From a virus (Duplodnaviria > Caudoviricetes): a stretch of 64,000 nucleotides of DNA. Made by a program: the position numbers and the translations under genes. How positions within the stretch are numbered: the stretch's first letter is position 1; each line of letters begins with the position of its first letter. Positions 1,753 through 43,132 of the stretch are shown here, one piece after another. The stretch is from the IMG/VR virus record IMGVR_UViG_3300028888_000064, positions 32,001-96,000 of that record; one strand, written 5' to 3'. The notes below the pieces were generated by a model. That model was given only the letters and a program-made list of their open reading frames with translations, searched no databases and was not told where the DNA came from.

Positions 1753-2163
1753 ATGATATTATTCCGAAATAATAAACCCCAATTAACAGATGTTATAAAA
1801 ATAAATTCTAAGATTAAGTTAATAAAGGGGAGTGATTTATCAGTATTTAAGAATAATCCCAAAGCAATTAGTAAACTGCCTTCTATTGGAAAAGATAAAA
1901 GTAATTATGTAAACTACAGTATTGAATCATCTGACAGTAAAATGCCTTTAGGTATTGTTCAAATATCAAACGATAACTCAGAATTTATTGTTATTTTTCC
2001 AGAGAATGTATCAAGAGAAATTACTAAGTCGCATAAATTTGCAACCATGATTCATAAGGCTATATCAGAATTTCTACAGTTTTATAAAAAATTCAGGTAT
2101 AAAACCGGAGTAATTGTATTCATAGAAGATAACTCAATAGTGGATAAGTATTTACTGCATTAA
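1753..2163 (+). CDS. Leader-variant protein, degenerate GNAT-like paralogue
   Basis: Starts MILFRNNK. KIKLIK...YVNYSI...LGIVQI aligns by eye with the GNAT at 2771 (KIKLVK...FVNYDI...IGFIQV). Confidence 0.6.
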   Translation: MILFRNNKPQLTDVIKINSKIKLIKGSDLSVFKNNPKAISKLPSIGKDKSNYVNYSIESSDSKMPLGIVQISNDNSEFIVIFPENVSREITKSHKFATMIHKAISEFLQFYKKFRYKTGVIVFIEDNSIVDKYLLH

Positions 2164-2180
2164 TTCAACAAATATTTCAT

Positions 2181-2576
2181 ATGATTATACTTAGACAGAA
2201 AGAATACTCTCTTCGGGAAAACTCTGAAGAATTAATAGAGGTAACCCCAGAATATCAATTAGTTAAAGATGATCGTAAGGGTTTTGTTGCAAATCTATTA
2301 AGAAAAATCCCATCTATAAAAAATTATCAAGATAGTTGGGTACATTACAATCTATATCGTACCGGTCAGAAGAAATCTTTAGGTTCAATATTTATTGAAG
2401 AAACAAATAAGGGTTCTGATCTAAAGAGTAGCTGGTTTGATGTCGACAAATTACTACCTAAACAAGTAATAACAGAGATTGTAAAGTCTATTACTGATTT
2501 TGGTAAGAAACACGGCTATAATAACGTAGCAGTGGAAGTATTTGATGGTACCCCTGGTGTTGCATTATATAGCTAA
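2181..2576 (+). CDS. Leader-bearing GNAT-like paralogue, C-terminally truncated
   Basis: MIILRQKEYS leader. Colinear with 2771 (LRKIPSIK/LRYIPSIK; FGKKHGY/FGKKLGY) but stops at PGVALYS, where 2771 continues IYRKLGF. Confidence 0.7.
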   Translation: MIILRQKEYSLRENSEELIEVTPEYQLVKDDRKGFVANLLRKIPSIKNYQDSWVHYNLYRTGQKKSLGSIFIEETNKGSDLKSSWFDVDKLLPKQVITEIVKSITDFGKKHGYNNVAVEVFDGTPGVALYS

Positions 2577-2607
2577 TCCTGTTTTTATTTTAAATTAAAA
2601 TAGTATC

Positions 2608-2763
2608 GTGATAATACTTAGACGCAAAACATATTCCCTCCTAAGAAATGTTAGTGATACTGTAGGATTAACAACCTCTGATCCAAAGCAAATCGAAGCA
2701 AACAGTAAGTCCAACGGTGGCATGTATTGGAAGAGGGCAAAAGCCCCAATATTTGGAGGATAG
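2608..2763 (+). CDS. Unannotated 51-aa leader-bearing ORF (GTG start)
   Basis: Translates as MIILRRKTYSLLRNVSDTVGLT..., a perfect leader. The N-terminus resembles its GNAT neighbours. Confidence 0.6.
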   Translation: MIILRRKTYSLLRNVSDTVGLTTSDPKQIEANSKSNGGMYWKRAKAPIFGG

Positions 2764-2770
2764 ATACGAG

Positions 2771-3253
2771 ATGATAATACTTAGAATAAAAAACTTCACT
2801 TTTCGTGAAGATATGGACGATGTTATACCATTGACTCCTAAAATTAAACTAGTAAAAAGTCGTATAGGAAGACTTGGTAGAATATTGCGATATATTCCTT
2901 CTATTAAGCGAGACCAGGATGCTTTTGTTAATTATGATATCTTCTATTCGGGAAGAGAAAAATCCATTGGTTTTATTCAGGTAGTAGATAATGGTAATCT
3001 CGAACTAAATGTTGTACATATGGCTGTAGATGAAGATTTTCGTGGTCAAGGTATTGCTACTAAGACAATGGAAACTATCATAGCTTTTGGAAAAAAGTTA
3101 GGGTACAAATACATTACTCTAGAGGCTGCGGATAATTCGCCTGATGGGATTCACATTTATAGAAAGTTAGGGTTCAGAGACTTAGGTCATGTAGTCTTGA
3201 AAGATGATTTCCTTTGGGGAGGTGGCTATACAAAAATGAGATTAGACATATGA
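2771..3253 (+). CDS. Leader-bearing GNAT acetyltransferase
   Basis: Probable true start MIILRIKNFT at 2771. Acetyl-CoA motif A MAVDEDFRGQGIAT and motif B IYRKLGF. Confidence 0.85.
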   Translation: MIILRIKNFTFREDMDDVIPLTPKIKLVKSRIGRLGRILRYIPSIKRDQDAFVNYDIFYSGREKSIGFIQVVDNGNLELNVVHMAVDEDFRGQGIATKTMETIIAFGKKLGYKYITLEAADNSPDGIHIYRKLGFRDLGHVVLKDDFLWGGGYTKMRLDI

Positions 3254-3381
3254 TAATAAAAAGAAAAAAGAAAACTACTGTGGATAAACATAGTCTAAGA
3301 CAAGAGCAAGTTGAGGAGAAGAAAGCTCCCGGTTTTATTTCGACCTCAGAAATAAAGACAGTTACCTCACATTGGCCATGA
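3250..3381 (+). CDS. Unannotated 43-aa ORF with leader-like start
   Basis: MIIKRKKKTT...; ATGA overlaps with both neighbouring genes suggest translational coupling. Confidence 0.5.
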   Translation: MIIKRKKKTTVDKHSLRQEQVEEKKAPGFISTSEIKTVTSHWP

Positions 3382-4439
3382 TACTACTTAGACAGAAAGA
3401 ATATACTAGGGCTGAAAGAGAAGCGTTGAAAGAATTACTATTCAAAACTGGAAAACTTCGAAGATTACCAGGAGGCTCTAAAATGACCGCCAGGGATGTT
3501 GCTAGATTCAATAAATTAGCCGCGGATGTGCAACTTTGGACTAAAGGTTATAAACCTAAAAAAGAGGACTTTAAAAGTGCTAAGGTATTCTTAGAACATG
3601 CAGGTTTAGGAAAGTCCGCTGAAGAGTTAGAACACATAGCTAGTAAATACTCTAATAGAGAGGTGCTCTCTCGATGGCAAAGATTAAGACAGCGCCATAG
3701 TGAATTTGACATTCCGGGAATCAGCTCAAAACAACTAAAGAGGTTAAATAAAAGATATGATATCGATCGTAAGAACTGTCATAAAGTTCTTACAGATTTA
3801 GGTAGTTTAGAGAGAGGTGAAGGAAGTTTAATAGCAAACTTAGCAGAAGATGCTAAGAAAAAAAATATTCCTATTATTCAAAATTTAGGAGAGCCTTCAG
3901 AAAGTTTTACGGAATCATTAAATTATACGCGTAAACTTGCAGGAAGAGATAATGTGGAAGGAATCTTAAAAAGTATTAAGTATGATACTCCTGAATTTTC
4001 AACAAAACAAGCAAAGAGACTTGAATCTGCAGTAAAAAATAAAAACGTTGATAATATTGTAGTTATTGGTAAATCAACGGGCCCTGGAATTCTTGCTCAT
4101 GAATTAGGACATTGTAAGACATTAGATACAAGTTCTTCCGGTAGGTATCTAGATTTGGCAGGAAAAGCCGAAGATAGGGTATTACGTGTATTATCTAGAA
4201 AAAATGATACCCCCCATCTATTTTATCTACATAATAGGGCAAGGCAGATTGGGGATTCACTAGGTGAAATAGCTAATGAGAGTAGTGCCACTTCTTATGG
4301 TTTAGCCAGATTAAAGAAACATGGTTCTACTTCAAAACAATTAAAGAAAATGAAGGATGAATTAGGTCTTAATGGGGCTTTAGGAACATACGTAAATAAG
4401 AATAGAAAAAAAATTGCTGAAAGCTATTTAAACGAGTGA
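3378..4439 (+). CDS. Leader-bearing zinc metallopeptidase-like protein
   Basis: MILLRQKEYT leader; ILAHELGHC (HExxH) plus downstream ANESSAT third-ligand Glu; homologous to 40520. Confidence 0.75.
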   Translation: MILLRQKEYTRAEREALKELLFKTGKLRRLPGGSKMTARDVARFNKLAADVQLWTKGYKPKKEDFKSAKVFLEHAGLGKSAEELEHIASKYSNREVLSRWQRLRQRHSEFDIPGISSKQLKRLNKRYDIDRKNCHKVLTDLGSLERGEGSLIANLAEDAKKKNIPIIQNLGEPSESFTESLNYTRKLAGRDNVEGILKSIKYDTPEFSTKQAKRLESAVKNKNVDNIVVIGKSTGPGILAHELGHCKTLDTSSSGRYLDLAGKAEDRVLRVLSRKNDTPHLFYLHNRARQIGDSLGEIANESSATSYGLARLKKHGSTSKQLKKMKDELGLNGALGTYVNKNRKKIAESYLNE

Positions 4440-5288: not shown

Positions 5289-6995
5289 ATGAAAAAAAGC
5301 GAAGGATTTTTTCAAAAGATTTTTGGTTCCTATTCTATAGGTAACTCGAGAATGCCACTTAGAAGTAACATTTTCAAAGGAAACGGTTACTCTCAGATAG
5401 GTGGTACGGGAAGATGGGGGAAGAATAGTATGAATAGACAGAGTCCTTTATTAGGGAATTCTAGCCCATCCAACCTTATCTCGGGTTATTATGATAGAAT
5501 AGATGAACTAAGAGGATATCAATTGTTGGATATTGTAAAACTAGCAACTAACTTTTTCTCAGATTACATAGTAAATTTCTTAGAGGATAGTGGTTCTAAG
5601 GTAGTTACTATTTATTCGGAGGATGGTTCAACAGTTGATGAAGTAAAAACAGAAAGAATAAATGAGATCCTAACAAAAGATCTCAGAATTTTTGATTATA
5701 TTAAGGACCATGTTAAAGATATGGTCTTTTATGGGCAATATACAAGCTTGATCTGTAGATCAAAGGACGAACTAGGACACACAAAGTTTAGATTTGAAGA
5801 GCTTAGCGATCCTGTATCTGTCATTTCTAAGAAAAAGAGAAACTCGGAGGGTGGTATTGATGAAACATTCTTAGCTAGGGGTGAAGACGGTAAAGTTTAC
5901 GAAATTAGTAAGAATGATGCCTTTACCTTAGGTAATATTAATCTTCGTCTTATTAATGACATGGAAGAAGGTTATAAAACTAAGAATAAAGAAAATCCAA
6001 AACCATCTTTTGGTAAAGTGTCTGGAGAATCCGCATTGGATAAAATTAGGAAAACTTGTTCTTATTCAACAAGTGAACCCTTATTCTATTCTATGATTCT
6101 TAAAGTAAAGGAGTTGATTATTAAGGAACTCCTAGTTTCTTTAATTTCTCTTAGAGACCTTTCCAGCGTTCAGATTTTCCTACTACAGTTTGATAAGAGT
6201 ACTCCTATTGAAACTGCTAATGAACTTTGTGCTAGAACTACAAAGTTAGCGAATAATACAAATGAATTAGCTTCTTTCTTGACTAGTAACTTTGACGTTA
6301 TTAGTTTCTTAGAGAATGTGATGTCTCAGTCTGCTAAGTTTGTTCCTGATTATAACTCTACTCTCGGCAATAAAAATAGTATGCTTCCATTAGATAAATT
6401 ATCGGATAAAATTTTGGAAGTAATGCAAACAATTGATACCTGTAGAGCTAATGTACTTAGTCCACTGGGTATTCCTAGTTCTATCCTAGATTCGACTAGT
6501 GGTAGTAAATGGACTATCTTACAGCAGTCAGAAAGAGCTAATAGTAGAGTTAGTGGATATATTGGCGGAGTAAAAGAATCTGTTCTGAACTTAGTATTAA
6601 TCTTACATGATATCCTGTATGGAAAGGATCTTGATCCTAATCTCGTAAAACTTCATGTATCAGAGAAGACTAGTGTAGAATACAATAACCAGATTAATCA
6701 ATCTGAGTCTATTGGTGGTCTTTTGACAGGTATTACAGGTGTTATTACTAACTCCCTACAGACACTCGAAGGAGCTGCTCCACTTATTGATACTAAGGCT
6801 TTCTTGAACTATATTCGTAGTTTGATCAAAGATATTGACCCAGATACAGAAGCACTAATTACGGATCAAACGGTAGAGGCTTATGCAGCATTTATGCAAT
6901 CTAAGATGGTAGCCGCCGCAGAAAACCAGGGTATTGATCCAGGTTCATTTATGAGTTTCCTTCAACAGGGAAATCAACCTAATCAAATGATGTAA
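5289..6995 (+). CDS. Putative portal protein (T4 gp20-like)
   Basis: 568 aa, near the terminase. Portal-like segments KDMVFYG, QIFLLQFD and LSPLGIPSSIL (cf. gp20 L-x-[VI]-P-x-S-R-L). Confidence 0.7.
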   Translation: MKKSEGFFQKIFGSYSIGNSRMPLRSNIFKGNGYSQIGGTGRWGKNSMNRQSPLLGNSSPSNLISGYYDRIDELRGYQLLDIVKLATNFFSDYIVNFLEDSGSKVVTIYSEDGSTVDEVKTERINEILTKDLRIFDYIKDHVKDMVFYGQYTSLICRSKDELGHTKFRFEELSDPVSVISKKKRNSEGGIDETFLARGEDGKVYEISKNDAFTLGNINLRLINDMEEGYKTKNKENPKPSFGKVSGESALDKIRKTCSYSTSEPLFYSMILKVKELIIKELLVSLISLRDLSSVQIFLLQFDKSTPIETANELCARTTKLANNTNELASFLTSNFDVISFLENVMSQSAKFVPDYNSTLGNKNSMLPLDKLSDKILEVMQTIDTCRANVLSPLGIPSSILDSTSGSKWTILQQSERANSRVSGYIGGVKESVLNLVLILHDILYGKDLDPNLVKLHVSEKTSVEYNNQINQSESIGGLLTGITGVITNSLQTLEGAAPLIDTKAFLNYIRSLIKDIDPDTEALITDQTVEAYAAFMQSKMVAAAENQGIDPGSFMSFLQQGNQPNQMM

Positions 6996-7934: not shown

Positions 7935-8339
7935 ATGATAATTCTCAGGAATAAATCATTCGCTGTTCCTCAGATGGGGGAGATGATTGATGCTGAGAAG
8001 AGTGGTAAATACCTTAATCCTCAGCCTCAACCAACTCAAGCACAACCTCAGCAAGCTCCACAAGAGATAACTTCAAAAGACCTTCAAATCGAGCAAATGA
8101 GGTTACAGAGACAACAGCGATTATTACAACATCAGAAAGCTAAGCTACAGGTGCAAGAAGGATTGGCAAGAACAAGAGCTATTACACAAAGGCAAAGAAT
8201 GGAAAACGAAAAAAGACAGCAAGATTTAAAAAATATAATGGATATACATAAAAGAATATACGACGATAACGAAGTACATAACCCTACATTATATAAATCA
8301 AAATCAACTATTACTGCGCCTGTAGCTATGCCTAAATAA
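7935..8339 (+). CDS. Leader-bearing Gln-rich coiled-coil protein
   Basis: MIILRNKSFA leader; Q/R-rich heptads. Confidence 0.7.
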   Translation: MIILRNKSFAVPQMGEMIDAEKSGKYLNPQPQPTQAQPQQAPQEITSKDLQIEQMRLQRQQRLLQHQKAKLQVQEGLARTRAITQRQRMENEKRQQDLKNIMDIHKRIYDDNEVHNPTLYKSKSTITAPVAMPK

Positions 8340-8451: not shown

Positions 8452-8720
8452 TGATTATAGCCCGGAAAAAACATAACAGTAACCCGGGGCAACACGAAGA
8501 CTCTGTGCTGCGAAATATAAATTTGGATCGGGTTGAAAAATTAGGAGATGACTTAGTATATAAATTAGCAGATGTTGCCGATACTGGTCTGAACTATGCT
8601 GCTGATTCAAACCCGGTCGTTGAAAAAGCAACATCGAAGCTTAGAAAGAGAGTTAGTGGATTTACGATACCAATAAAGAAGCTAATATCTCTAAAAAGAA
8701 AGAAGAATAAAGACGAATGA
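8451..8720 (+). CDS. Small basic protein with leader-like start
   Basis: MIIARKKH... Confidence 0.6.
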   Translation: MIIARKKHNSNPGQHEDSVLRNINLDRVEKLGDDLVYKLADVADTGLNYAADSNPVVEKATSKLRKRVSGFTIPIKKLISLKRKKNKDE

Positions 8721-9088
8721 TTATACTCAGAACAAAGGAGTTTTCCATTAGTGCTGCAGAATCCAAGTACTGGAAAGCACTTTGGGAAGAATACAATAAA
8801 AAGTTTAAAACTTCGAAACTAAAATTTGAGTTTAAAGATAGGCCAAATGGACTTATTAAACTCTCCTTTCAAGGAATTACTTGGGTTTATATTGAGTTTG
8901 ATAAGGTGAGAGCTACAGATTATAATGGAGAAAATGTTTCTGACTCTAAGTATTATGTCTGGCATGAACTCTCAAATAGTCTCGAAGAAGACATGCCTCT
9001 TGTTCAGAGAAATCCAATTACTTATGATAGCATAAAGTGGTTAATTGGAGAACTTAGGCGAGAGCTATTAACTAAAAAACCACATTGA
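8717..9088 (+). CDS. Leader-bearing hypothetical protein
   Basis: MIILRTKEFS leader. Confidence 0.7.
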   Translation: MIILRTKEFSISAAESKYWKALWEEYNKKFKTSKLKFEFKDRPNGLIKLSFQGITWVYIEFDKVRATDYNGENVSDSKYYVWHELSNSLEEDMPLVQRNPITYDSIKWLIGELRRELLTKKPH

Positions 9089-9110: not shown

Positions 9111-9194
9111 ATGTTTGATGTACTAATTGGTTCAATTGTCGCCGTAGCAGTAGTATTATCTAACTACGACGTCTTTTTTGGGGGAAGGATTTAA
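9111..9194 (+). CDS. Unannotated 27-aa single-TM-like peptide
   Basis: MFDVLIGSIVAVAVVLSNYDVFFGGRI, preceded by an A/T-rich TAATAATAAT start context. Confidence 0.4.
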   Translation: MFDVLIGSIVAVAVVLSNYDVFFGGRI

Positions 9195-9243
9195 TCCTTA
9201 CCTCCCATACCTTAAGGTATATCAAATAGATTTTTGCTACATT

Positions 9244-11109
9244 ATGGAGCCATTTATAAATCAATATGATCCGACTGCATATGTAGACCTAACATCAGTT
9301 TCGTTAGAACAGCAATATTCAAAATTAACTGAACAAGAAAAATTATTAATATTCTGCAAAATAAATGGATATAACAGAATACCTCCTAGTATACAAAGAT
9401 TATACTCTGATGAATATTACTTAGGGGGTTCTGCTTTTTTTGACGGTGGTGATAATATTTATCAATTTTGGAAAGACAGTTTACCTATGATTTTTCCAAA
9501 TGAAGTAACGACTGCAAAGCCATTTCTTATACTTAGTGGAGCAATCGGTATTGGTAAATCTACGATCTCCAGATTGTGCTTGGCCATGACGTACGCAAGA
9601 ATGTTATGTATGTCCAACCCAAGTAGAACATTAAAGCTCACACCTAAACCTTTTTCTGCTGTTATTTATCACAGAGATGAAGAAGTTGCTAGAAAAGAGT
9701 TTAAATATTGGTTTACACAGGAAGTATTAGTTAAGTCACCGTTTTTCAAAAATACAAGAGGCAATTTCAAATTTAACGTTTTAACTTCAGGTCCTCTATC
9801 AGCTGCTGGTCTAGGTAGTGATGTAATCGTCTACATTATCAGTGAGGTTAACTTTTTCCCAAATCAGGAAAAAGCTCAAGGTATAGTAGAAACAGCTTAT
9901 GGTCGTTTTACTAGCCGTTTTGATAGAGGTGCTATGACTAAAGTAGGAAATCTTATCATAGACTCTTCCGCAAAGGGAGATAGTTCTGTGACGGAGTGGT
10001 TCCTAGATAATACACCTAAAGACCTAACGTGGAATTGTCATCCAACACATTTTGCAGTAAAACCAGATGCATATAAAGAGTCTAGGGGAAGAACATTTTC
10101 TGTTTATATAGGCGATGGTAAATATCCCCCACAGATCCTTCCCGAGGATTATAGACTCTTAGAAGACCAAGACCCAGAGAGAGTACTGAAAATTCCCTTT
10201 CAGCTTTATGTAGAAGCTAAGCAGAACTTGGAAAAAATGCTCCAAGATAAGTGTGGAATTTCGACGGGAGCATCAGACTCTTTCTTCAGAACATTAGAGC
10301 ACTTTATTAATTGTACAAAAGGCCGCCAAAACTTTGTACCAGAGGTTATCTGTGTAGATTTTTATGATAAAACTGATAGACTTATAGATAAGATTGGTAG
10401 TGCCTTGAGGGGAATTAAGTTTGGTACCTCTATATGGATTGGTCTTGACCTAGCCACAAACAGTGACTTCGCAGGAATTAGTGCAGTAACCTTTGATAGC
10501 TGGGAAGTTATCGATAAAGTTAGGTTACCTAGGGTAAAATGTTTATTTGCCTTAGCAGTATCTAGAAAAGAAGGGCAAGAGACAAGTTTATATCACATTT
10601 TTGACTTAATAATGTCTCTTAAGAAGAATTATCACCTCATAGTATCTGCTGACCAAGCTTTTTCTAAACAAATACTACAGGATTGTGAGAGAGAAGGAAT
10701 AGTTACTAATGGTAGGATTAGTACAGATAATGTTCCTTGTGAACCTGCACTCTACTTGAAGAACTTAATTATGCAAGAGCTCATCAGTATTCCCTACAAC
10801 AGAAGACTAATGAGAGAAATTCATGACTTACGATATGTATCAACTAAGAGAGGTCTTAAAGTAGATCACCCTAAGAAAGCTACCTATAACCCAACAGTTT
10901 TTGATGATAATAATGGAGTAGGTTCTAAGGACGTCTGGGATTCTCTTTGTTCTGCATGTTATAGTCTGAAAATGTCAATTGATGCCGGAGAAGAAGGTGG
11001 TTATTCTAGTGGTATTGATAAACAATTAGAGATTGTTAAACATATGACGAGGAGTGCTGCCTCTGAATCAGGACAGATAGTTCAGAATATGTTAGAGAGT
11101 ATATTTTAA
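9244..11109 (+). CDS. terL: Terminase large subunit
   Basis: Walker A SGAIGIGKS, Walker B-like YIISE, motif III DSSA, RNase H-like IGLDLA, and C-terminal KVDHP...SKDVWDS. Likely start MEPF at 9244 (ORF track starts at TTG 9178). Confidence 0.9.
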   Translation: MEPFINQYDPTAYVDLTSVSLEQQYSKLTEQEKLLIFCKINGYNRIPPSIQRLYSDEYYLGGSAFFDGGDNIYQFWKDSLPMIFPNEVTTAKPFLILSGAIGIGKSTISRLCLAMTYARMLCMSNPSRTLKLTPKPFSAVIYHRDEEVARKEFKYWFTQEVLVKSPFFKNTRGNFKFNVLTSGPLSAAGLGSDVIVYIISEVNFFPNQEKAQGIVETAYGRFTSRFDRGAMTKVGNLIIDSSAKGDSSVTEWFLDNTPKDLTWNCHPTHFAVKPDAYKESRGRTFSVYIGDGKYPPQILPEDYRLLEDQDPERVLKIPFQLYVEAKQNLEKMLQDKCGISTGASDSFFRTLEHFINCTKGRQNFVPEVICVDFYDKTDRLIDKIGSALRGIKFGTSIWIGLDLATNSDFAGISAVTFDSWEVIDKVRLPRVKCLFALAVSRKEGQETSLYHIFDLIMSLKKNYHLIVSADQAFSKQILQDCEREGIVTNGRISTDNVPCEPALYLKNLIMQELISIPYNRRLMREIHDLRYVSTKRGLKVDHPKKATYNPTVFDDNNGVGSKDVWDSLCSACYSLKMSIDAGEEGGYSSGIDKQLEIVKHMTRSAASESGQIVQNMLESIF

Positions 11110-11329: not shown

Positions 11330-11527
11330 ATGATAGTCCTAAGACAAAAACAATATAGTTTTATTAAAAAGAGTTTATATAATAGACTACTAGAAAGAAC
11401 GAATAAGCAACTTCGTAATATTCAGGAGCTATCTAGGAATAAATTTGTTGTAGTTACTAATAAGGGTAGACAAATTTTTGAAAAAGCTAAAAGAGCTAGG
11501 TTTAGATTCCTGAATATGTTGAAGTAA
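11330..11527 (+). CDS. Leader-bearing small basic protein
   Basis: MIVLRQKQYS leader; K/R-rich. Confidence 0.7.
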   Translation: MIVLRQKQYSFIKKSLYNRLLERTNKQLRNIQELSRNKFVVVTNKGRQIFEKAKRARFRFLNMLK

Positions 11528-11544: not shown

Positions 11545-12006
11545 ATGATAATTATTAGACAAAAAGAATTTGCTAGGGCAATTCCTAAGGAATTAGTTGT
11601 AAAAGAGCTTGAACGTAGAGGATTGGCGGGAAAAATACATTCACCATTGGGTATTGGTATACCAAAATACATATCGAGGGACTTTAAAACTGTAAAAAAT
11701 CCTAGTTACGTTAAAGAAACTGAAGCAGCTTGGCAGAAATGGCAGAATCAGGGCAAGAGTTGGTCTACTGGAAAGTATAAAGACCTTGGCGTTAATCAAA
11801 GAATTAATCTTAAGGGAACTCTTGAAAACACTGGATTTGATAAATATACTACAAATCTTAAAACTGGTGGTAGAATCCCTTGGAAAAATAAAAAAGTATC
11901 GGCACGTAATGGAGTAGTAGATCACCCATCTAAGTTAATAGATGGTGATTCTGCTATTAAAGTAGCTTCAGGACATACATGGAACATTAGAGATTTCCAT
12001 CATTAA
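11545..12006 (+). CDS. Leader-bearing basic protein
   Basis: MIIIRQKEFA leader. Confidence 0.7.
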   Translation: MIIIRQKEFARAIPKELVVKELERRGLAGKIHSPLGIGIPKYISRDFKTVKNPSYVKETEAAWQKWQNQGKSWSTGKYKDLGVNQRINLKGTLENTGFDKYTTNLKTGGRIPWKNKKVSARNGVVDHPSKLIDGDSAIKVASGHTWNIRDFHH

Positions 12007-12113: not shown

Positions 12114-12845
12114 ATGTTAATTAAGCGTAATGTATATTTCTCCGCAATTGACGAAGACGGAGAAGAGAGATTGTATTCCACTACTGAAGTAATGGATGAA
12201 CAGGATTACATCGAAAGACTCTATGCAGAAGCAGAAGACGAAGAAGCTGTAGGTGGTAAGAAAGGTCTAAGCTCACTTCAGGCTGCAGGTATTGGTGGTG
12301 CAGCTGCTGCTACTGCTACAGCTGGAGCAGGCGCTGGCTTATATTTTGGTGGTGAGAAGCTCGGAAAACACCTAGAGAAGCGCAGAAAGAAGGCTCTTGA
12401 GAAGTTACAGCAAGAGCGCTCGAACTACTTGGACCGCTATACAGATAAGACTATTGGAAAGACCAACCTAATGCAGTGGGATTCTTCCGCAAATGGTGGA
12501 AAAGGCGGAATGGTAGATAAATCTATGGGCCTAAAGGAGATTGAAGGTAAGATTGCTGCAAAAGGTCAGGCAGGTAAGTTGGAAACTAAGCTGAAGAATA
12601 TTAAGGATTACTTTAAGAATGCGAAGGGTCTTGCTGAAGCTGAGGAGAAGCTTGTTAATTCTCGTAAACTATCAGGTGCTGCTAAGACAGCTGCTGAGCA
12701 GAAAGCAGTCGAGTTGAACAAGGCAGCCAAAGCTCTCGCACGTAATCGTAAGCTTGGTGCTGCTGGTATCGCCCTTGGTACTACAGCTGTCGGTACTGGT
12801 ATTGGCTACGGTATTCATAAATATCGTCATCGCAACGACAACTAA
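12114..12845 (+). CDS. Glycine/alanine-rich virion-type protein with acidic scaffold-like propeptide
   Basis: MLIKRNVYFS...ERLYS...DYIERLYAE (cf. scaffold DYMERLFSD); two Gly/Ala hydrophobic segments. Confidence 0.7.
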   Translation: MLIKRNVYFSAIDEDGEERLYSTTEVMDEQDYIERLYAEAEDEEAVGGKKGLSSLQAAGIGGAAAATATAGAGAGLYFGGEKLGKHLEKRRKKALEKLQQERSNYLDRYTDKTIGKTNLMQWDSSANGGKGGMVDKSMGLKEIEGKIAAKGQAGKLETKLKNIKDYFKNAKGLAEAEEKLVNSRKLSGAAKTAAEQKAVELNKAAKALARNRKLGAAGIALGTTAVGTGIGYGIHKYRHRNDN

Positions 12846-13596: not shown

Positions 13597-13627
13597 GGGG
13601 GGGGGGGGTATGAAAAAAAAAACCCCC
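13597..13627. repeat. Homopolymer cluster G12 / A10 / C5
   Basis: GGGGGGGGGGGG-TATG-AAAAAAAAAA-CCCCC directly upstream of the 13641 gene. Confidence 0.8.
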
Positions 13628-13640
13628 GATATTAAGAGAT

Positions 13641-23884: not shown

Positions 23885-23888
23885 TATT

Positions 23889-26246: not shown

Positions 26247-26254
26247 AATAATCA

Positions 26255-26270: not shown

Positions 26271-26284
26271 TTACTAAGATTTTT

Positions 26285-26977: not shown

Positions 26978-27019
26978 AGGATAACAAAAAACATGTTAAA
27001 AACTATTTAAAACATAAAT

Positions 27020-29256: not shown

Positions 29257-29299
29257 TGGGTAATACCTCATTTTGATGGTGGGGTATTACTCAATTTTT
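29257..29299 (+). terminator. Terminator-like hairpin after the sheath gene
   Basis: TGGGTAATACCTCA...TGGGGTATTACTCA followed by ATTTTT. Confidence 0.7.
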
Positions 29300-29308
29300 A
29301 TTCAATAT

Positions 29309-30681: not shown

Positions 30682-32274
30682 ATGATAAAATTTAAGAAAA
30701 AAGAGTTTACTATACCTGAGGGATATTACTCTGGACCGAAAGATTTGACAAAAATCCCGGGAACCCTTGAATTGATAGGAAAAGGGTCTACTATTGGAGC
30801 AATTACTGGTGGTATTGCCGGAAAATTTATAGAAGATTCAAGTATTATTGACGGTGCAATAACAGGATCTAAGGTAGGAACTCTCAGTGGTATAGCAGCT
30901 AAACTATTACTAAACTACATACATAAGCCAATGACCAAGATTAAGTACCAGGAGGTTGACAGAAATATTCGTAGACAGTTTGGCGTTTATCAAATCTCAG
31001 GCTTTACTGTAGGAGATAATATTACCAACAGAGGTAATATTAGGGATAAGTTTAGCTATAACGATAGAAATGTTTGTGACTATAAGATAAACTTTGCGAT
31101 TTATGATAATAAAATCACTATGTATACTTTTGGCATGACAAAGGATGAGCTGAACGGTGTATCTAAGATACTAGATGAATATTGTAAGAAATATTTTGCA
31201 ATGAAATATTCCGCTAAGCTTATCAACCAAAGGGTATATTCTTATGCGGTAGATATTATATTTACCAATTACCAGGTAATTAGTAATTTTATCATAGAGT
31301 TAAGTGATTTTATTAAAAGTAAGATAAATCTCTTAGATAACAATGCAATAGTTAGTCTTAGGTTATCGGAGAGTGCCGAAAATTTCAATGAAGAAGAGAG
31401 AACCTATTCGGTAAGTTCTCTTAATAAATATGATTTGATAAAAATCTTAACTAAAGGTGTATTATCAGGTATCAATTTCACTAACAAACTTAGAACAGAT
31501 ACATCCACTGCAATATTAAGTGCAATATTAGAAGGCATTAAGCATTTGGGGAAAAATGAGGTTAATAAAATTACAGGAAGCTCAGGTCAAAGAGTTACCG
31601 ACCTAAACAATGTATTTTTAGAGAGTGAACTAAAGAAACTTCACTACGTAGATGGGTTTAGCTACACTACTGGTAATGAGGCCACAAAATTAAATATGTC
31701 TCTAAATTCGGGAATCTTTATTATAACTGCGGTTAAAGAATTGGAGAAAGAGCTTGATAAGAAAGTTTGGAAAATTTTCCCAGAAAAAATAAATAAATCT
31801 AAGATTGGTGGAGTAAATGTATACACTTATGTAGTAAAGAGTCTAAGTGAATTCGAAATGCTCTTAAATAAAGTAATGTCTGTGGAATGTGATACTAAAC
31901 CAAATATATTTGATAACCCTGCATTTAAGAAAAAATTCTTTTCAAGTAACATGATAGAAAAATTAGTAGATAAATTAGAAAAAAATAGATTAGAGGATTT
32001 TGAAGTTAGTGATAGAATCCCTAAAGATGTAATTAGTGTTACAACAGATCTAAAGGATATTAGAATATATATACCTACCGACTTAGACTATGCTCAGTAT
32101 GAGATTGACGATGAAATTAGGCGAAATGCTAAATTTCTCAGAACAAAGACTGTTTTAGATAGGAATATGTATATAATGACTCTAATCGGAGGAACACTAA
32201 CACTTAGTCAACTTTATAATGTTATTAAGTACATAATCGAGGAACTAGGATTTTGTACTTTATTAGATCAATAA
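30682..32274 (+). CDS. Leader-bearing multidomain protein with glycine zipper
   Basis: MIKFKKKEFT; internal ERTYS and KKFFS sites. Confidence 0.7.
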   Translation: MIKFKKKEFTIPEGYYSGPKDLTKIPGTLELIGKGSTIGAITGGIAGKFIEDSSIIDGAITGSKVGTLSGIAAKLLLNYIHKPMTKIKYQEVDRNIRRQFGVYQISGFTVGDNITNRGNIRDKFSYNDRNVCDYKINFAIYDNKITMYTFGMTKDELNGVSKILDEYCKKYFAMKYSAKLINQRVYSYAVDIIFTNYQVISNFIIELSDFIKSKINLLDNNAIVSLRLSESAENFNEEERTYSVSSLNKYDLIKILTKGVLSGINFTNKLRTDTSTAILSAILEGIKHLGKNEVNKITGSSGQRVTDLNNVFLESELKKLHYVDGFSYTTGNEATKLNMSLNSGIFIITAVKELEKELDKKVWKIFPEKINKSKIGGVNVYTYVVKSLSEFEMLLNKVMSVECDTKPNIFDNPAFKKKFFSSNMIEKLVDKLEKNRLEDFEVSDRIPKDVISVTTDLKDIRIYIPTDLDYAQYEIDDEIRRNAKFLRTKTVLDRNMYIMTLIGGTLTLSQLYNVIKYIIEELGFCTLLDQ

Positions 32275-37312: not shown

Positions 37313-39463
37313 ATGTACATTAAATTAGGATCAACAACATTAAATTATCCTTCTATACCGTACGATGATTTTATGGTATTTTCCGAGGTTATCGACTCTC
37401 AGGTAGGATATGAAAAGCCAGTATTGGTTAGAACAATAGAGCAATTAGATAAATGGTTTGGTAGAGATTTTACTAGTAGAGATTATTTTGAAGAACTAAT
37501 CAATAGTGGAGTAACTCTCTTACTGACAAAACCCTTAGGATCTTATACCAATGATCTCGGAATAAAATTCTCTGGCGATGGTATCACGGTTGTGGATGAT
37601 ATTTATATATTTAATAATCTACCTACTACTACAGATCAGACTAAAGTTTATAAAGTCTATAATCCGAACGGCACTGGTGAATTTACAGGTACCCTAGGTG
37701 ATACTGAGATAACTTATGACTTATATCGATGGATAACAGATAATGAATCTATACCTAATGGCTATTACAAAAAGGATGATTTACCTAATATCATTAAAGC
37801 AGATTCACAGTCACTGAATAATAGGGATACTCTTAGGTTATTTTCCACAGATAATACTACCATCTACACGCATTTCGTATACAGTGAGCGCGAAAACGTG
37901 GGATCAACAGAAGAGGATTCATTGAATCTAAGTAACTTAAACTTAGAAAGAATAGAATTAGGTTATCAGACACTAGTCTTTGATATAGTAGAGCGTGAAG
38001 ATCCAGATAATACTCTTCAAGAAAACTCTTATATAATTTTCCCTAACGAACCTATATCAGATAATATTGAAAATACTTTATATTATCACGGAAATGTAGA
38101 TGAGCTAGGAGTTGATAGTAAGTATTATAAAGAAGGTGCTGAGATAAGCTTTGATAGCTTAGATGATCTTTTTGGGAAATTAGAAGGAGTAGAAAAAGTA
38201 GGTAATAAGTTAGTTGCAAACCGGCCTATCGATACTACATTCTTTTATGAAGGTCTCGGGATAGATCTTATACCAAATTACCTAGAAACTCATCATATTC
38301 TTGATAAATATGAGAACTCTAAGGATAGTTCTACAGACGAACCAATAAATAATCGTATTGTAGATTTTTGGTCTAAAACTATTGGTACTGCCGGTATTGA
38401 TGGTAATATAGCTGTGACTATAGAGGAATCCTTAGATGAGGGAAATTATAGAATTATTATTGAGAGATTTGGTCACCTAGAGATTTTTGAGGGACCTATA
38501 AAAGTTACCGCAGGAATAGAAAGACTAGATTATCGAATAAGTAGATTATCTGAACTAGTGTACTGTGATTTCGCTGAAGGAATAGAAGAATTACCGTTAG
38601 GTACATGGACTTTGAAAGGAGCCATTGAAGAAACGTATAATTATGAATCTTATAACAATGGCTTAGATGAGATCTTTGAGGAAGCTGATAGAACTTTTCC
38701 AGATTTTTTCTTAATACCTGATTCTTCTTTATATGTACCGGAAAGAAATACATTAGATGAGAATATAGAGGAATACGAAAAGTTCTATAAAAAAGTACTA
38801 AGATATGCCGAAGAGTCTGGATGTCAAGTATTAGTTGAAAATGAAGACACTAAAAATAATTATATGTATAACTACACGGGTGATGTGTTTAATAGATTAG
38901 TGTACTTTTATAGATCAATGATGCTAGGTGATGTTCCTAGACCAGGCTATTATATATTTATTAGGGGATTATTAAGAGACATTTATTCAATGTCTACTGA
39001 TATAATCTACTATAAAAGCATAAAGGATCTGAGCAAAGATAAAAATTCATATGAAGAAACAGAGGAATCCGAGGATCTGAAAAAATATAAATGCAATTAT
39101 TTAATAGACAACGGATTAATGTACTATTATAAAGAGTATCAGAACGGCGATAAGTTTGAGACTTCAATATGGATGAGATTTGTTCTCGGAAAAATCAAAA
39201 GAGAGTTAGAAAAGAATAAGTGGAAATACCTAGGTGAAAAAAATCAGGGAAAAATAAGGGAAAATATTTCTGCAATCCTCAATAAAGTTTCTTCTAATTT
39301 TGGGATAATTAGGGATTTAAGCATACTAGATATTAGATTCCACTTAGAAAGTAATAAGGTCGACGTTAACATTGAAACAACTATATCAGACCTTGTAAAA
39401 AATCACATGATAGTTAATTTTACTATAAATTATAATAAGCAAGATGGCAAATACAGTATCTGA
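37313..39463 (+). CDS. Second, divergent tail-sheath-like protein
   Basis: PVLVRTIEQLDKWFG, WSKTIGTAG..NIAVTIE and C-terminal RFVLGKIKRELE...YLGEKN...KVDVNI fit sheath architecture; adjacent to the tube gene. Confidence 0.65.
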   Translation: MYIKLGSTTLNYPSIPYDDFMVFSEVIDSQVGYEKPVLVRTIEQLDKWFGRDFTSRDYFEELINSGVTLLLTKPLGSYTNDLGIKFSGDGITVVDDIYIFNNLPTTTDQTKVYKVYNPNGTGEFTGTLGDTEITYDLYRWITDNESIPNGYYKKDDLPNIIKADSQSLNNRDTLRLFSTDNTTIYTHFVYSERENVGSTEEDSLNLSNLNLERIELGYQTLVFDIVEREDPDNTLQENSYIIFPNEPISDNIENTLYYHGNVDELGVDSKYYKEGAEISFDSLDDLFGKLEGVEKVGNKLVANRPIDTTFFYEGLGIDLIPNYLETHHILDKYENSKDSSTDEPINNRIVDFWSKTIGTAGIDGNIAVTIEESLDEGNYRIIIERFGHLEIFEGPIKVTAGIERLDYRISRLSELVYCDFAEGIEELPLGTWTLKGAIEETYNYESYNNGLDEIFEEADRTFPDFFLIPDSSLYVPERNTLDENIEEYEKFYKKVLRYAEESGCQVLVENEDTKNNYMYNYTGDVFNRLVYFYRSMMLGDVPRPGYYIFIRGLLRDIYSMSTDIIYYKSIKDLSKDKNSYEETEESEDLKKYKCNYLIDNGLMYYYKEYQNGDKFETSIWMRFVLGKIKRELEKNKWKYLGEKNQGKIRENISAILNKVSSNFGIIRDLSILDIRFHLESNKVDVNIETTISDLVKNHMIVNFTINYNKQDGKYSI

Positions 39464-40037
39464 TCTGGTGAGAGGAAGTAATGACTTACACCAAAAATTT
39501 ATTGATTACGAAAAATCCTATAAGGATGGTAATAAGGAATTTCTTCGTGGTGATATGTGGGAATTTCATTTCCTTACTGCACCGAAAATTGTTTACTATC
39601 CAGGAGACGACTTGATTAACAAACGCCTAAATGCAGTGCAGGTAGGTATCGATTATAGTGTAATCGGTTTTGAAAAGAGAATGAGAAATAACTATGTAAT
39701 TTATCAACAGGCTGACCAGTCTACATATGGTACACTCACACTTAGCTTTGTCGATCGTGAAGACCAGGCAATCACTTACTTTGCGGATGACTGGAGACAA
39801 AAGATCGCTGACCGTGATACTAAGTATTCTTTCAGAAAGGATGATGTAGTAGCAGACTGTGAACTTTACATTACAAACTCATCTCGTATTGACGTTCGTT
39901 ACCTACGTTTCTACAACTGTATCATAACTGATGCAACTACTGATGAAAGTGGTGCAACTGACCCTGGTACAGATCGTGCTGATATTAATATTAGTATGAA
40001 GTTCGAGCATTACACAAGAGAGTTTAAGAATCTTTAA
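39444..40037 (+). CDS. Tail tube protein (gp19-like)
   Basis: 197 aa; YGTLTLSFVDRED..ITYFADDW...LRFYNCII...ISMKFEH pattern; highly expressed codon bias. Confidence 0.8.
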   Translation: MANTVSDLVRGSNDLHQKFIDYEKSYKDGNKEFLRGDMWEFHFLTAPKIVYYPGDDLINKRLNAVQVGIDYSVIGFEKRMRNNYVIYQQADQSTYGTLTLSFVDREDQAITYFADDWRQKIADRDTKYSFRKDDVVADCELYITNSSRIDVRYLRFYNCIITDATTDESGATDPGTDRADINISMKFEHYTREFKNL

Positions 40038-40096: not shown

Positions 40097-40513
40097 ATGA
40101 TATTCAAACAAAAAACATATAGCCTTGGTGATAAGATTCACTTTACTAAATTTATTGGCATTTTAACTGGATTTAGCAATAAAGCTAAGAATTTACACTG
40201 GGCAGCCCCTGCTAAGAATATCCACACTTATCTGGATGACCTATATGGAATTATAAATGATTTTACAGATACTATAGCAGAGGGGTACATGGGAATTCTA
40301 GGTAAAATGGGACCTAGGGATATAGTAGTCGTACCTTGTGAGGTAGGAGACGCTAGAACATTTATAGACGAACTCATAGACCAGACAAAAAAGTTTTATG
40401 AAGGTATCCCAGATTCAACTGAATTTAAGGGAATAACTAGTGAAACAGAAACCTTCATGCAGAACTGTCAAAAGTATCGCTACTTGTTCAGCTTGTGCAG
40501 TAATGACTTCTAA
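40097..40513 (+). CDS. Leader-bearing Dps/ferritin-like protein
   Basis: MIFKQKTYS; KNLHWAA...IHTYLDDLY...DTIAE matches Dps H-W...H...D..AE ferroxidase spacing. Confidence 0.75.
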   Translation: MIFKQKTYSLGDKIHFTKFIGILTGFSNKAKNLHWAAPAKNIHTYLDDLYGIINDFTDTIAEGYMGILGKMGPRDIVVVPCEVGDARTFIDELIDQTKKFYEGIPDSTEFKGITSETETFMQNCQKYRYLFSLCSNDF

Positions 40514-40519
40514 GGTATT

Positions 40520-41431
40520 ATGATTGTAGTTAGACAGAAAGAATACGGACGTCTTATTGATTCTGACGTAAAAAAACGAGGTCGTAAGTTCGATGATGTA
40601 AGAAAAAAGTTTCTAGAAGGAAATAATACAGTATATGATAAAAATACACTCGGAAAACTGAAAAATCGTGTAGAAAGAACTACTCCAATTGTAAAAGATG
40701 GAATAGAAGCAGGTTTCGAAGTAGAACATCATTTAAAGCCTTATACCTTTGTTGTATCTAAAGATAACATCGATCGTAATCGTCTTACACATTTAGGAAA
40801 GAAAATTCACCTAGAGAATCCAGAAAACCTAGCTAATCTTGCTCATGAATATGGACATGCACTAGATTTTGCCAGTAAAGGGGGACACTCCAGGTCTATA
40901 GATGGTATATTTTTTGATGGTGAAAAGGATTTCTTTGGAGATGTTCGAACTAGTAGAAAACATTTAACGGATGGTAGAATTAAAGTGAAATATGAAGCTA
41001 CTGCCTCAAAGAATGGCTTAAAGATGTTAAGGAAACTAGAAGCTTCCCCAGAAGATATGAAAAAGACTAGAGAGAATTTAAAAGATGCGCTAGGAACTTA
41101 CTATAGAGCTGAAGAATCTTTAAGTTCTCAGGCCGCAAAACTTGGCAATATGTCTGATAAGGAGTATTTCAAGCAAAAACTTACTGATAATCGAAGACTT
41201 AAGAGAGACTACAAGAAAGCAATAAAAGAAATAGAAACTGCAGGTAGAACTGGTGCTGAAAGAGCATATGAAGCTTCTCAAAGATCTGGCGTTGAAAATG
41301 CGGGGAGAGCCATTAAGAAAACCTTCTTAAAAAACGATACTGTAAGACATGCAGTGGAAAAAGCAAGCCAAGCTGGGGATAAAACAAAGAAAAAGATTAT
41401 TAAGAAAGTATTTAAACACTTGATAAAATGA
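40520..41431 (+). CDS. Leader-bearing zinc metallopeptidase-like protein
   Basis: MIVVRQKEYG; LAHEYGHA plus YEATASKNG...ALGTY; paralogue of 3378. Confidence 0.75.
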   Translation: MIVVRQKEYGRLIDSDVKKRGRKFDDVRKKFLEGNNTVYDKNTLGKLKNRVERTTPIVKDGIEAGFEVEHHLKPYTFVVSKDNIDRNRLTHLGKKIHLENPENLANLAHEYGHALDFASKGGHSRSIDGIFFDGEKDFFGDVRTSRKHLTDGRIKVKYEATASKNGLKMLRKLEASPEDMKKTRENLKDALGTYYRAEESLSSQAAKLGNMSDKEYFKQKLTDNRRLKRDYKKAIKEIETAGRTGAERAYEASQRSGVENAGRAIKKTFLKNDTVRHAVEKASQAGDKTKKKIIKKVFKHLIK

Positions 41432-41958
41432 TTGTAATTAGACAGAAAGAGTTTGGAAAAAAGAAATCCGAACGACTAACGGAAAAAGATAAAGACTTTA
41501 TTAGAGCTCTTGCTGAAGAAAGTGACTCAGCTAAGGCTAATAATAGAGTAAGTTATAGAACATTACAAGGTTTAGGTGCCTTAGGTGCTGGTATAGGTGC
41601 AGGAACTCTAGTCAAGAAGATAAGTAAAAGTAACAAGGCCGGAATAATTGGTGCAGGTATAGCAGGTATTGGTACAGGTATTGCTCTTAATAAGCCTATT
41701 AAGAGAGCCATTGAAAGAGCAAACCTCGAAGAGGATATAAAGTATTCGAAAAGGAAAGGACACTTTATATCTAGAGACCGTATTGACCGAGATTACTTAA
41801 TTGATAAGAGAGAAAAAGAGCTAGAACGTCAAAGACAGCTGGAGGAACAGAGAAGAAGAGAGGCACGTGAGGAAAGACTTGAGTATGAAAGAAACCAGGC
41901 TATTCGTGATGCAGGTGCTTTTGCCGGTGGTCAGAAAAAGTATGATGAATACAAATAA
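41428..41958 (+). CDS. Leader-bearing glycine-zipper/coiled-coil protein
   Basis: MIVIRQKEFG; GLGALGAGIGAG...GIIGAGIAGIGTG. Confidence 0.75.
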   Translation: MIVIRQKEFGKKKSERLTEKDKDFIRALAEESDSAKANNRVSYRTLQGLGALGAGIGAGTLVKKISKSNKAGIIGAGIAGIGTGIALNKPIKRAIERANLEEDIKYSKRKGHFISRDRIDRDYLIDKREKELERQRQLEEQRRREAREERLEYERNQAIRDAGAFAGGQKKYDEYK

Positions 41959-41973
41959 TGAACGCAGATAAAA

Positions 41974-42263
41974 ATGCGGAAAAAATTAATAAAAACAGAT
42001 AAGTATATGGGCTTCTCAGATTGGGAAGACTCAGAAAAATATCATGTCACCTATGCCTGGTGCATTATTCCAGGAACTACTTGGAGAGATGATGTCAAAA
42101 ATGGATTTATATGGAAATAAATGATGGTTTCTCTAATGGACTTGGAGGAGACACTCTGATGGAATCTTTTTATAATAAGGTAAAAATAACAACAGGGGAT
42201 TGGGAATATCCTCATAAAGACAGCATAGACTTAAAAGGAAGAGATCCAAAAAAGGAAGAGTAA
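41974..42263 (+). pseudogene. Possible frameshifted gene (two overlapping ~50-aa ORFs, 41974-42120 and 42111-42263)
   Basis: Coding-like sequence fills a 320-nt gap in an otherwise gene-dense region; the frames switch near an A5 run at ~42097. Confidence 0.35.
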
Positions 42264-42278
42264 TATTATACATACACA

Positions 42279-42713
42279 ATGATTATATTAAGGCATAAAA
42301 ATTTTTCACGAATTCAGGACGAAGATTATCGTGATGAATTAGAAAAGGATAAAAAAAGCGTTAAACACGCAAAACGTAATGGAACAATAAAAGGTGCTCT
42401 TGGAGGCGCTGCTACTGGCCTACTGATAGGTGCTAATGTTGGTGGTAGTAAAGCTGCTCTATTAAGTCTTGCAGGTGGCACTTTAGCTGGTGGTGGTCTG
42501 GGATATCATCTGGGAAAGAAAAAGAAGAAAGAGGTTGAGGAATATGCCGATAAAATGTTAAGACGCTATGAATCAGCTGACGAAAAGGACAGAGCATACT
42601 TGAGAAAGAAATTAAATGAGGATAAAAATCGCGAACTGCAGAGAATTCAGGCAGAAGCTCAGAGATCTCAAGCACAGTCTCAAAGCATTATGGCACTTAA
42701 TTCTTGGAAATAA
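42279..42713 (+). CDS. Leader-bearing glycine-zipper/coiled-coil protein
   Basis: MIILRHKNFS; GALGGAATGLLIG...LAGGTLAGGGLG. Confidence 0.75.
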   Translation: MIILRHKNFSRIQDEDYRDELEKDKKSVKHAKRNGTIKGALGGAATGLLIGANVGGSKAALLSLAGGTLAGGGLGYHLGKKKKKEVEEYADKMLRRYESADEKDRAYLRKKLNEDKNRELQRIQAEAQRSQAQSQSIMALNSWK

Positions 42714-42718
42714 AAAAA

Positions 42719-43132
42719 ATGATAATATTAAGGAATTCATATTTTTCTTCTAAAGATGACGAAGAGTATCGTGAATTAATACAGAAGAAGAGGAACTCAA
42801 TAAAAGATCCTAAGGAGTACATACTTCCTCTAACTACTGTAGGTGCATTGGCAGGAGCTCACACCGGATATATATGGAAGCATTCTGTGAAATCAGCGTT
42901 GACTGGTACTGCTATTGGTGCACCAACTTTAGGTACGATTGGTTATTTAAACGAAAAGCGTCGTGCAAAAAAGTTGAATAAAAAACTCGACGAGAAATTA
43001 GAAATTTACGAAAAAGCTAGTAAAAAGGAAAAAGCACATCTTCTCGAAAAAGAAAAATTTGATCAGAAGAAATTTCAAAAAGAATTACAATCTTCTTTAC
43101 CAAAAGGTTCCCCTTTTAAGGAAAAAAATTAA
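42719..43132 (+). CDS. Leader-bearing glycine-zipper protein, paralogue of 42279
   Basis: Likely start MIILRNSYFS; DEEYRELI vs DEDYRDEL; YEKA..KEKAHL vs YESA..KDRAYL. Confidence 0.75.
   Translation: MIILRNSYFSSKDDEEYRELIQKKRNSIKDPKEYILPLTTVGALAGAHTGYIWKHSVKSALTGTAIGAPTLGTIGYLNEKRRAKKLNKKLDEKLEIYEKASKKEKAHLLEKEKFDQKKFQKELQSSLPKGSPFKEKN

Follow-up and report, generated by a model that had tools for sequence, protein, structure and literature searches.

Leader peptide and its distribution

The window analyzed here, a stretch of 64,000 nucleotides, comprises bases 32001–96000 of the IMG/VR virus record IMGVR_UViG_3300028888_000064 (Caudoviricetes), which is 133,262 bp in length with a G+C content of 34% and a CheckV completeness of 36%. 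A common N-terminal leader, M-I-[IVK]-[LF]-[RK]-x-K-x-[FY]-[small], was found in register at the start of 21 plus-strand genes, with ATG as the start codon in 20 of them and GTG in the gene at 2608 (genes are designated by their first position in the window; Table 1). The leader genes are interspersed with those of a portal-like protein (5289), the large terminase subunit (9178), a predicted prohead protease (14167), the major capsid protein (19135), the tail sheath (27020) and the tail tube (39444). A first-pass annotation of this DNA had reported such mixing with head genes, and the absence of the leader from the sheath, tube, tape-measure-like and baseplate-hub-like proteins, as found here; it took the leader for a capsid-targeting tag of the T4 type.

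All 22 core starts named in that annotation proved to be start codons followed by the motif: 21 in register, and 40097 with a leader shorter by one residue. In 42719, S replaces K at residue 7. At residue 10, 19 of the 21 in-register leaders have S, T, A or G; nine of the 21 have E at residue 8, no Glu being fixed. The twelve variants listed by the same annotation held up in part. Five have a clear gapped or shifted-register form, hydrophobic-[KR]-x-K-x-[FY]-[small] (12938, 15450, 20698, 21002, and 23889), and two are probable or partial variants (12114 with RNVYFS and 25700 with RKAFD). Four retain the N-terminal half only, MI.[FILK][RK] (1753, 3250, 8451, and 22534), and 7388 is unconvincing.

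A strict regular expression, searched for in the six reading frames of the whole record, gave 20 matches at start codons, all within window positions 2181–42279; the single further match was a non-start site in a 16-codon frame, and the minus strand had none. With a position matrix, the 21 members scored at least 18 bits and the next best among 5,251 start positions 4.3 bits, in a partly circular test, as the matrix was trained on the same 21 members. A looser leader pattern was searched in a complete relative with terminal repeats (G001, 400,901 bp). It gave 19 leader-like N-termini, 17 of which were on the plus strand at 119–203 kb around the capsid gene, all at the first Met of their frame, and the remaining two look like chance matches. 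This pattern undercounts a short form, M-x-Y-x-[VI]-K-R-F-[SA], which further orthologs have, one of them at 90 kb. The leader is thus confined to the structural zone both in the record and in the 400-kb relative, which answers the question of early and replication genes raised in the first pass and argues against a general start bias.

Codons within the leader vary synonymously (Leu as CTT, CTC, CTA, TTA and TTG; Arg as AGA, AGG and CGG; Ser as TCN and AGT), so that both Leu and both Ser codon boxes are used, as the annotation had claimed. Conservation ends sharply after residue 10, and the upstream DNA is not conserved; selection therefore acts on the peptide. A start cassette, a bias in late-gene initiation or an expansion of paralogs is barely credible as the source of the leader. 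The A/T-rich codons and the lack of an obvious Shine–Dalgarno sequence before many of the genes would suit such an origin, but no other start in the record bears the motif, about 316 kb of the complete relative are free of it, the proteins behind it are unrelated, and its conserved internal copies (see below) cannot be start effects. The nucleotide-level and initiation-bias reading was rejected on the grounds of codon variation, confinement of the regular-expression matches and the zone restriction in the relative.

Table 1. Leader genes, motif-bearing proteins and structural genes of the window, with three protease orthologs from related loci
Position	Strand	Feature	Evidence or remark
1753–2163	+	N-terminal half only, MILFRNNKPQ	paralog of 2181 and 2771
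2181–2576	+	leader MIILRQKEYS; 131 aa	paralog of GNAT gene 2771
2608–2763	+	leader VIILRRKTYS; 51 aa	GTG start
2771–3253	+	leader MIILRIKNFT; GNAT acetyltransferase body	PF13508 E = 1.3e-12; PF00583 E = 3.2e-12
3378–4439	+	leader MILLRQKEYT; 353 aa; HELGH (HExxH) in body	no Pfam/PHROG match
5289–6995	+	portal-like protein (weak evidence)	E = 0.01 match; N-terminal FQKIFG also in ortholog of the complete relative
7935–8339	+	leader MIILRNKSFA	
8717–9088	+	leader MIILRTKEFS	
9178–11109	+	large terminase subunit, no leader	E = 9e-46 vs. annotated TerL of E. coli phage IME392
11120–11320	+	leader MIIIRNKTFA	
11330–11527	+	leader MIVLRQKQYS	
11545–12006	+	leader MIIIRQKEFA	
12114–12845	+	probable variant MLIKRNVYFS	
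12938–13504	+	gapped variant MIILRQYLQKMFG	
13641–14066	+	leader MIVLRQKIFF	
14167–15453	+	predicted prohead protease; gp21-like domain at residues 1–190, C-terminal extension	
15450–16304	+	acidic zinc-ribbon protein; two tandem motif copies at start (MKRLKIFSS...RRKIFSG)	
16308–19106	+	acidic indel-rich protein, 932 aa; 6 K-x-[FY]-S sites; scaffold- or core-like	
19135–20586	+	major capsid protein; QKTFSGY at residues 58–64	capsid similarity and conserved motif
20698–20997	+	gapped variant MSAIIKLKRKQFG; Gly/Ala-rich body	
21002–21409	+	gapped variant MIIRIKRQKYFS	
22534–22920	+	N-terminal half only, MITFKRKAL	
22907–23659	+	leader MIKFRQKIFS; core gene	leader present in 79/80 related loci
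23660–23884	+	leader MILLRNRNFS	orthologs often short form MIIKRFS
23889–24191	+	second leader form MATYRLKRKTYG	conserved in orthologs
24210–25295	+	leader MIRFKQKNFF; Gly/Ala-rich hydrophobic body	
25309–25716	+	leader MIILRTKQFT; glycine-zipper-like body	orthologs change to MAxYxLKRKxFT form
25700–26008	+	partial variant MATRIKLPRKAFD	full leader MINFRQKEFG in some orthologs
26285–26977	+	leader MIKFKRKEFS; body with hydrophobic segment	
27020–29245	+	tail sheath, no leader	phrog_23, E = 1.3e-9
30110–30664	+	leader MIILRQKEYA	
30682–32274	+	leader MIKFKKKEFT; 530 aa	second, internal KKFFS at residue 418
39444–40037	+	tail tube, no leader	phrog_45, E = 3.6e-7
40097–40513	+	leader MIFKQKTYS (one residue shorter); DUF5856 body	
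40520–41431	+	leader MIVVRQKEYG; HEYGH (HExxH) in body	no Pfam/PHROG match
41428–41958	+	leader MIVIRQKEFG; glycine-zipper-like body	
42279–42713	+	leader MIILRHKNFS	
42719–43132	+	leader MIILRNSYFS (S at residue 7)	paralog of 42279
44211–49805		tape-measure-like protein, 1864 aa, with metallopeptidase domain, no leader	
52469 (start)		baseplate-hub-like protein, no leader	
L076:5883–6467		protease ortholog with leader-like start	
L078:5257–5841		protease ortholog with leader-like start	
L045:5366–5950		protease ortholog with leader-like start	

Proteins behind the leader

The sequences following the leader are mostly unrelated, as had been claimed: among 34 such bodies BLASTP gave five pairs with E < 0.01, corresponding to the sets {1753, 2181, 2771}, {42279, 42719} and, weakly, {3378, 40520}. 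On this ground paralog expansion was rejected as the source of the shared leader. The bodies are basic, with a median isoelectric point (pI) of 9.7 and 25 of 34 above 9, as compared with a median of 5.75 and 17 above 9 for the other 100 open reading frames of the record (Mann–Whitney P = 2e-11).

Recognizable bodies include a GNAT acetyltransferase (2771), a DUF5856 protein (40097) and two HExxH proteins, 3378 and 40520, which are weakly similar to each other (E = 0.005), have one such motif each and may be zinc metallopeptidases. The GNAT and DUF5856 domains begin about 40–50 residues into their proteins. A leaderless homolog of 40097 with 26% identity was found in the complete relative in the region of 244510, far from the structural zone, and some genes of the DUF5856 family may be tagged and others not. 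Both observations are consistent with the addition of a tag to ordinary genes.

About a dozen bodies carry Gly/Ala-rich, glycine-zipper-like hydrophobic segments, and several leader genes adjoin the sheath and tube genes. Such features would be expected if the tag addressed proteins to another destination, for example the cell membrane, the place where tail or baseplate is assembled, or a compartment made by the phage. This is highly improbable: the same motif is borne by the capsid protein, the protease and the scaffold-like proteins, and the leader has no signal-peptide-like core. Only two to three hydrophobic residues precede its R-x-K, as against the hydrophobic core of about 7–15 residues in Sec, Tat and lipoprotein signal peptides; a signal-peptide reading was rejected for this reason.

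Predicted prohead protease and internal copies of the motif

We take gene 14167 to encode a gp21-like prohead protease with a C-terminal extension, on the basis of distant sequence similarity. Residues H51, S144 and D172 are invariant in its family. In the ESM Atlas it lies closest to clusters of Peptidase_S80 and Peptidase_S77 (score 0.96). Profile comparison with T4 gp21 by hhalign gave E = 0.004 with a 19-sequence profile and P = 1.9e-4 with 99 family members; against eight gp21-family proteases the 99-member profile gave a probability of 94.8% and P = 5.3e-8 over 130 columns. The controls were negative, with P of at least 0.051 for 20 unrelated phage proteins and P = 0.67 for a reversed gp21 alignment. 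At every profile depth the alignment was identical and placed H51, S144 and D172 on T4 gp21 residues 85, 140 and 168, presumably the catalytic triad H85, S140 and D168 of that enzyme. The triad of the SPN3US protease is reported as H77, S153 and D178 (PMC5694885).

The end of the leader, K-x-[FY]-S, was also found internally and conserved across relatives in four places: 14167, 15450, 16308 and 19135. In the protease, K-x-[FY]-[ST] sites lie at residues 201, 226, 253 and 272, directly after the domain. Among family members of at least 300 residues, K-x-[FY]-S was present in 51 of 53 representatives, with 157 sites in total versus 13.8 ± 3.6 in shuffled sequences (maximum 21 in 200 shuffles) and a peak at residues 150–275, just past the domain. 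The SPN3US protease gp245 is reported to cut its own C-terminus just past the catalytic domain, and the phiKZ protease to undergo C-terminal autocleavage as well (PMC5694885).

In many relatives the first nine residues of the protease itself are leader-like, e.g., M-R-C-K-V-K-L-F-S (Table 1, last rows). K-L-[FY]-S stands at residues 6–9 in 6 of the 53 long representatives, the window protease (MEVRVRCCG...) being without it. For T4 gp21, the first nine residues are reported to block the enzyme, which then cuts them off itself (PMC9958956).

In the capsid protein, K59, F61, S62, G63 and Y64 are invariant in all 21 sequences compared, with a variable indel-rich linker before the motif and a strongly conserved stretch after it. 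The capsid assignment of 19135 rests on ESM Atlas clusters carrying Pfam Gp23 (score 0.98) and on matches to the annotated capsid protein of E. coli phage vB_EcoM_IME392 (tblastn E = 7e-7; local BLASTP E = 3e-12), and not on the hhalign comparison of the capsid alignment with T4 gp23 alone, which was weak (E = 0.021, 46 columns). The Pfam Gp23 model itself matched neither 19135 nor the members of its alignment.

The protein 15450 has a pI of 5.0 and two to four motif copies in relatives. For 16308 there are 3–10 copies in relatives, each inside a variable Asp/Glu-rich linker. Charge is split accordingly between the two kinds of motif-bearing proteins, the single-site leader proteins being basic and the multi-site proteins acidic. 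The internal sites extend to L-K-A-K-E-F-S (protease) and LLQKTFS (capsid protein). PDB chains were searched by sequence and by profile with the protease, the capsid protein and 16308, and none of the three had a match.

The portal-like protein begins with MKKSEGFFQKIFGS, with K-I-F-G at residues 10–13; F-Q-K-I-F-G is conserved in the 51%-identical ortholog of the complete relative, and this protein may be trimmed at its own N-terminus too.

Repetition of the motif in scaffold-like proteins could also mean that K-x-[FY]-S is a docking motif that stays uncut and binds the inner shell, portal or scaffold, the repeats adding avidity; encapsulin cargo peptides act in this way. We consider this very unlikely in view of the positions of the motif, at the end of the protease domain and at the boundary of variable and conserved capsid sequence near residue 60. 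Both are known positions of autocleavage or propeptide cutting in SPN3US and T4 as reported (PMC5694885, PMC9958956).

Leader in related phages

Eighty loci with a capsid protein 61–80% identical to 19135 were found on uncultured contigs of up to about 400 kb; the contigs of database members reach about 427 kb, and the relatives are 350–420 kb in size. A search of a phage collection found no near relative. Orthologs retain the leader though their bodies are only 26–70% identical, and three leader forms interchange among them: MIILRxKxFS, MIIKRFS and MAxYxLKRKxF[STG]. Tagged genes number about 17 in the complete relative versus about 30 in the window.

For the family of 22534 (79 loci), 14 N-terminal forms are listed as the commonest; 13 of these have M-[IV]-x-F-[RK]-x-K, most of them without [FY]-[small]. 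The scaffold-like proteins are the reverse, bearing the cut half alone. Together they suggest that the leader consists of two overlapping parts, a putative address and a putative cut site.

A separate case is the gene at 29273–30106, whose likely true start is MDKTLLVDLKKKMFM, in which L-K-K-K-M-F precedes an M where the leader has a small residue; its ortholog in the complete relative has LKRKIFL. Its N-terminus may be leader-like and perhaps uncut, as in the 22534 family.

An alignment used as the query found four viral loci; single-sequence queries with two distant proteases found none. The distant loci L089 and L090, which have remote protease members, carry other leaders (e.g., MIYFDQETRQFS and MSLIEYTKQFA) with the same motif end. 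Leader-like starts make up 11 of 26 plus-strand open reading frames in L089 and 7 of 24 in L090, as compared with 4 of 95 and 2 of 125 in internal-Met controls.

The cultured phage IME392 encodes, upstream of its capsid gene, a protein of 478 aa that has no annotation (L093:6930–8366). By hhalign (P = 3.1e-9) it is another member of this protease superfamily, probably a protease–scaffold fusion.

Proposed processing of the tagged proteins

We propose, with good though not full confidence, that K-x-[FY]-S is the cut site of the phage's own prohead protease. The end of the leader, (hydrophobic)-[KR]-x-K-x-[FY]-[S/T/A/G], would be the recognition site of protease 14167, and our guess is that the scissile bond lies between [FY] and the small residue, since residue 10 is nearly always small. 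Somewhat less firmly, but still on balance, we favor a leader that is a two-part tag of the T4 capsid-targeting type, serving both targeting and trimming: its start, M-I-x-[L/F]-[R/K], would extend the site and probably act as an address into the assembling prohead core. After closure of the shell, the protease would trim the leader from about 27–30 mostly basic proteins, which would remain with the DNA, and would take roughly 60 residues off the capsid protein. The acidic multi-site proteins 15450 and 16308 and the C-terminal half of the protease would be cut up and leave. In T4, acidic core proteins are degraded and exit, while basic internal proteins stay with the DNA. Ejection of the trimmed proteins into the host may follow, although here we would lean slightly to the negative.

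The cargo-tag interpretation of the first pass is thus borne out in part: a gp21-like protease appears to be present, the motif stands at cut positions of the T4 type and leader genes are restricted to the structural zone; the targeting concept itself is already in print (see below).

Trimming could also occur with no address in it, the prohead protease taking the leader off as a short propeptide and the proteins being brought in by their bodies or charge. The motif half is the part common to distant clades, and the leader exceeds the extended internal sites of the protease and capsid protein by just three residues, which makes a separate targeting role for so short an address half less secure. 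Nevertheless, we regard a cut site alone as unlikely. The leader always stands at Met1 with fixed spacing, its M-I-x-[LF] half is conserved in the clade and resembles MIxF in L089, and the 22534 family retains this half without [FY]-[small]. There is also little evident gain in removing nine residues from about 30 unrelated folds if they play no part in loading.

Several further points weigh against a two-part tag cut by protease 14167. Cleavage, packaging and ejection are all predicted from sequence. The protease assignment rests on profile–profile comparison and a language-model lead, since the Pfam S77 and S80 models, PHROGs and plain HMMER gave no match for 14167; Pfam likewise gave no relevant family for its 19 relatives or for 10 distant family representatives. 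All characterized proteases of the gp21/gp175 family are reported to cut after Glu (PMC5694885), and a motif without fixed Glu means that a changed specificity must be assumed. Seven leader genes (30110, 30682, and 40097–42719) sit among tail genes, so that a head location is not given by gene order, and the hydrophobic body segments could point to a membrane destination. IME392, with a more distant protease, has leader-like N-termini in 0 of 27 proteins, and consequently no proteomics can be borrowed from that phage.

A bolder version of the proposal, which we put forward tentatively and think rather doubtful, is that the tag is a readable manifest of a large injected arsenal of about 30 proteins per genome. 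The groove of the protease would be the receptor, address and cut site would be one, and a protease of the gp21 family would have switched from Glu to an aromatic–small specificity. Tagged N-termini would dock into the substrate groove of the core-bound protease, and the cargo would include the GNAT acetyltransferase, the two HExxH proteins and the dozen glycine-zipper proteins. On this version, DNA would suffice to predict the packaged proteome of an entire group of uncultured gut huge phages.

Packaged and injected proteins are the first weapons of a phage and are nearly invisible in uncultured phages. If the tag is what we propose, the virion cargo of a widespread group of 350–420 kb phages could be listed from sequence alone, and its gains and losses could be traced between relatives. 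It would also mean that head proteases of the gp21 family can change specificity, with substrates and protease carrying the new motif together. The leader would then be a candidate tag for loading foreign proteins into large capsids.

Other features of the record

The tape-measure-like protein contains a metallo-endopeptidase domain at residues about 1000–1150 (phrog_3578 E = 2e-21; phrog_4070 E = 3e-15); domains of this kind are known from tape-measure proteins and endolysins. Hardly any protein of this phage is recognized by family libraries. Pfam and PHROGs gave no match for 10 large head-region proteins or for the 10 leader proteins searched, and a Pfam scan of 10 further proteins, nine of them named in the first-pass annotation, gave curated-level matches for three (GNAT, UPF0227, and DUF5856).

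Homopolymers, a G run followed by an A run and then a C run, occupy window positions 13600–13640, just 5′ of leader gene 13641. Two tandem arrays lie outside the window: about 12 small paralogs of 144–179 aa at record positions 21779–27551 (G000, plus strand) and eight paralogs of 178–227 aa at 126406–131201 (G000, minus strand), none of them with the leader.

Comparison with known systems

The main text of a paper on 360–402 kb gut huge phages (PMC12880540) contains none of the terms "N-terminal", "leader" and "propeptide". Our literature searches found no prior description of this leader or motif.

Encapsulin cargo-loading peptides are short terminal peptides that suffice to bring unrelated proteins inside an HK97-fold shell; they are usually C-terminal, are not removed and serve a cellular compartment rather than a virus. 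In the sites cut by herpesvirus assemblin a small residue, Ser, stands just after the cut, resembling the [FY] followed by S found here. Assemblin is reported to be of the same protease superfamily as gp21 (PMC5694885) and differs in hosts, substrates and scaffold-docking logic.

The giant myoviruses phiKZ, 201phi2-1 and SPN3US (gp175/gp245, Peptidase S80) are described as having many processed head and ejection proteins, a His/Ser/Asp triad and a C-terminal self-cut just past the catalytic domain (PMC5694885). They differ in their Glu motifs (A-x-E, S/A/G-x-E) and in propeptides that are, in those accounts, mostly long, several of more than 100 residues, and dissimilar. Fourteen mapped sites in nine proteins are reported for SPN3US (PMC10052503), whereas here one short uniform leader stands on about 30 genes.

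The closest likeness in kind is to T4 (IPI–III, Alt, gp24; gp21), with a peptide of about 10 N-terminal residues on unrelated proteins, a gp21-type protease, a capsid protein losing roughly 60 residues (predicted here) and multi-site scaffold proteins. The T4 capsid-targeting sequence of about 10 aa is reported to load foreign proteins into the core and to be removed by gp21, which also removes 65 residues from gp23 and degrades gp22, gp67 and gp68 (PMC9958956). Precedents in T4 include protease autocleavage as well (PMC9958956, PMC3012670, PMC5694885). The T-even internal proteins are described as diverse proteins with only the targeting sequence in common (PMC3012670), and hence the concept of many proteins under one tag is not new. 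The leader resembles T4 neither in the sequence of the tag nor in a cut after Glu, given its variable residue 8 and the capsid site QKTFS: the motif here is K-x-[FY]-[small], whereas that of T4 ends in Glu. About 27–30 clients occur in one genome here versus a handful in T4, under a much more uniform leader, and in an uncultured huge phage known from its sequence. What is new is the scale, the motif and the phage group.

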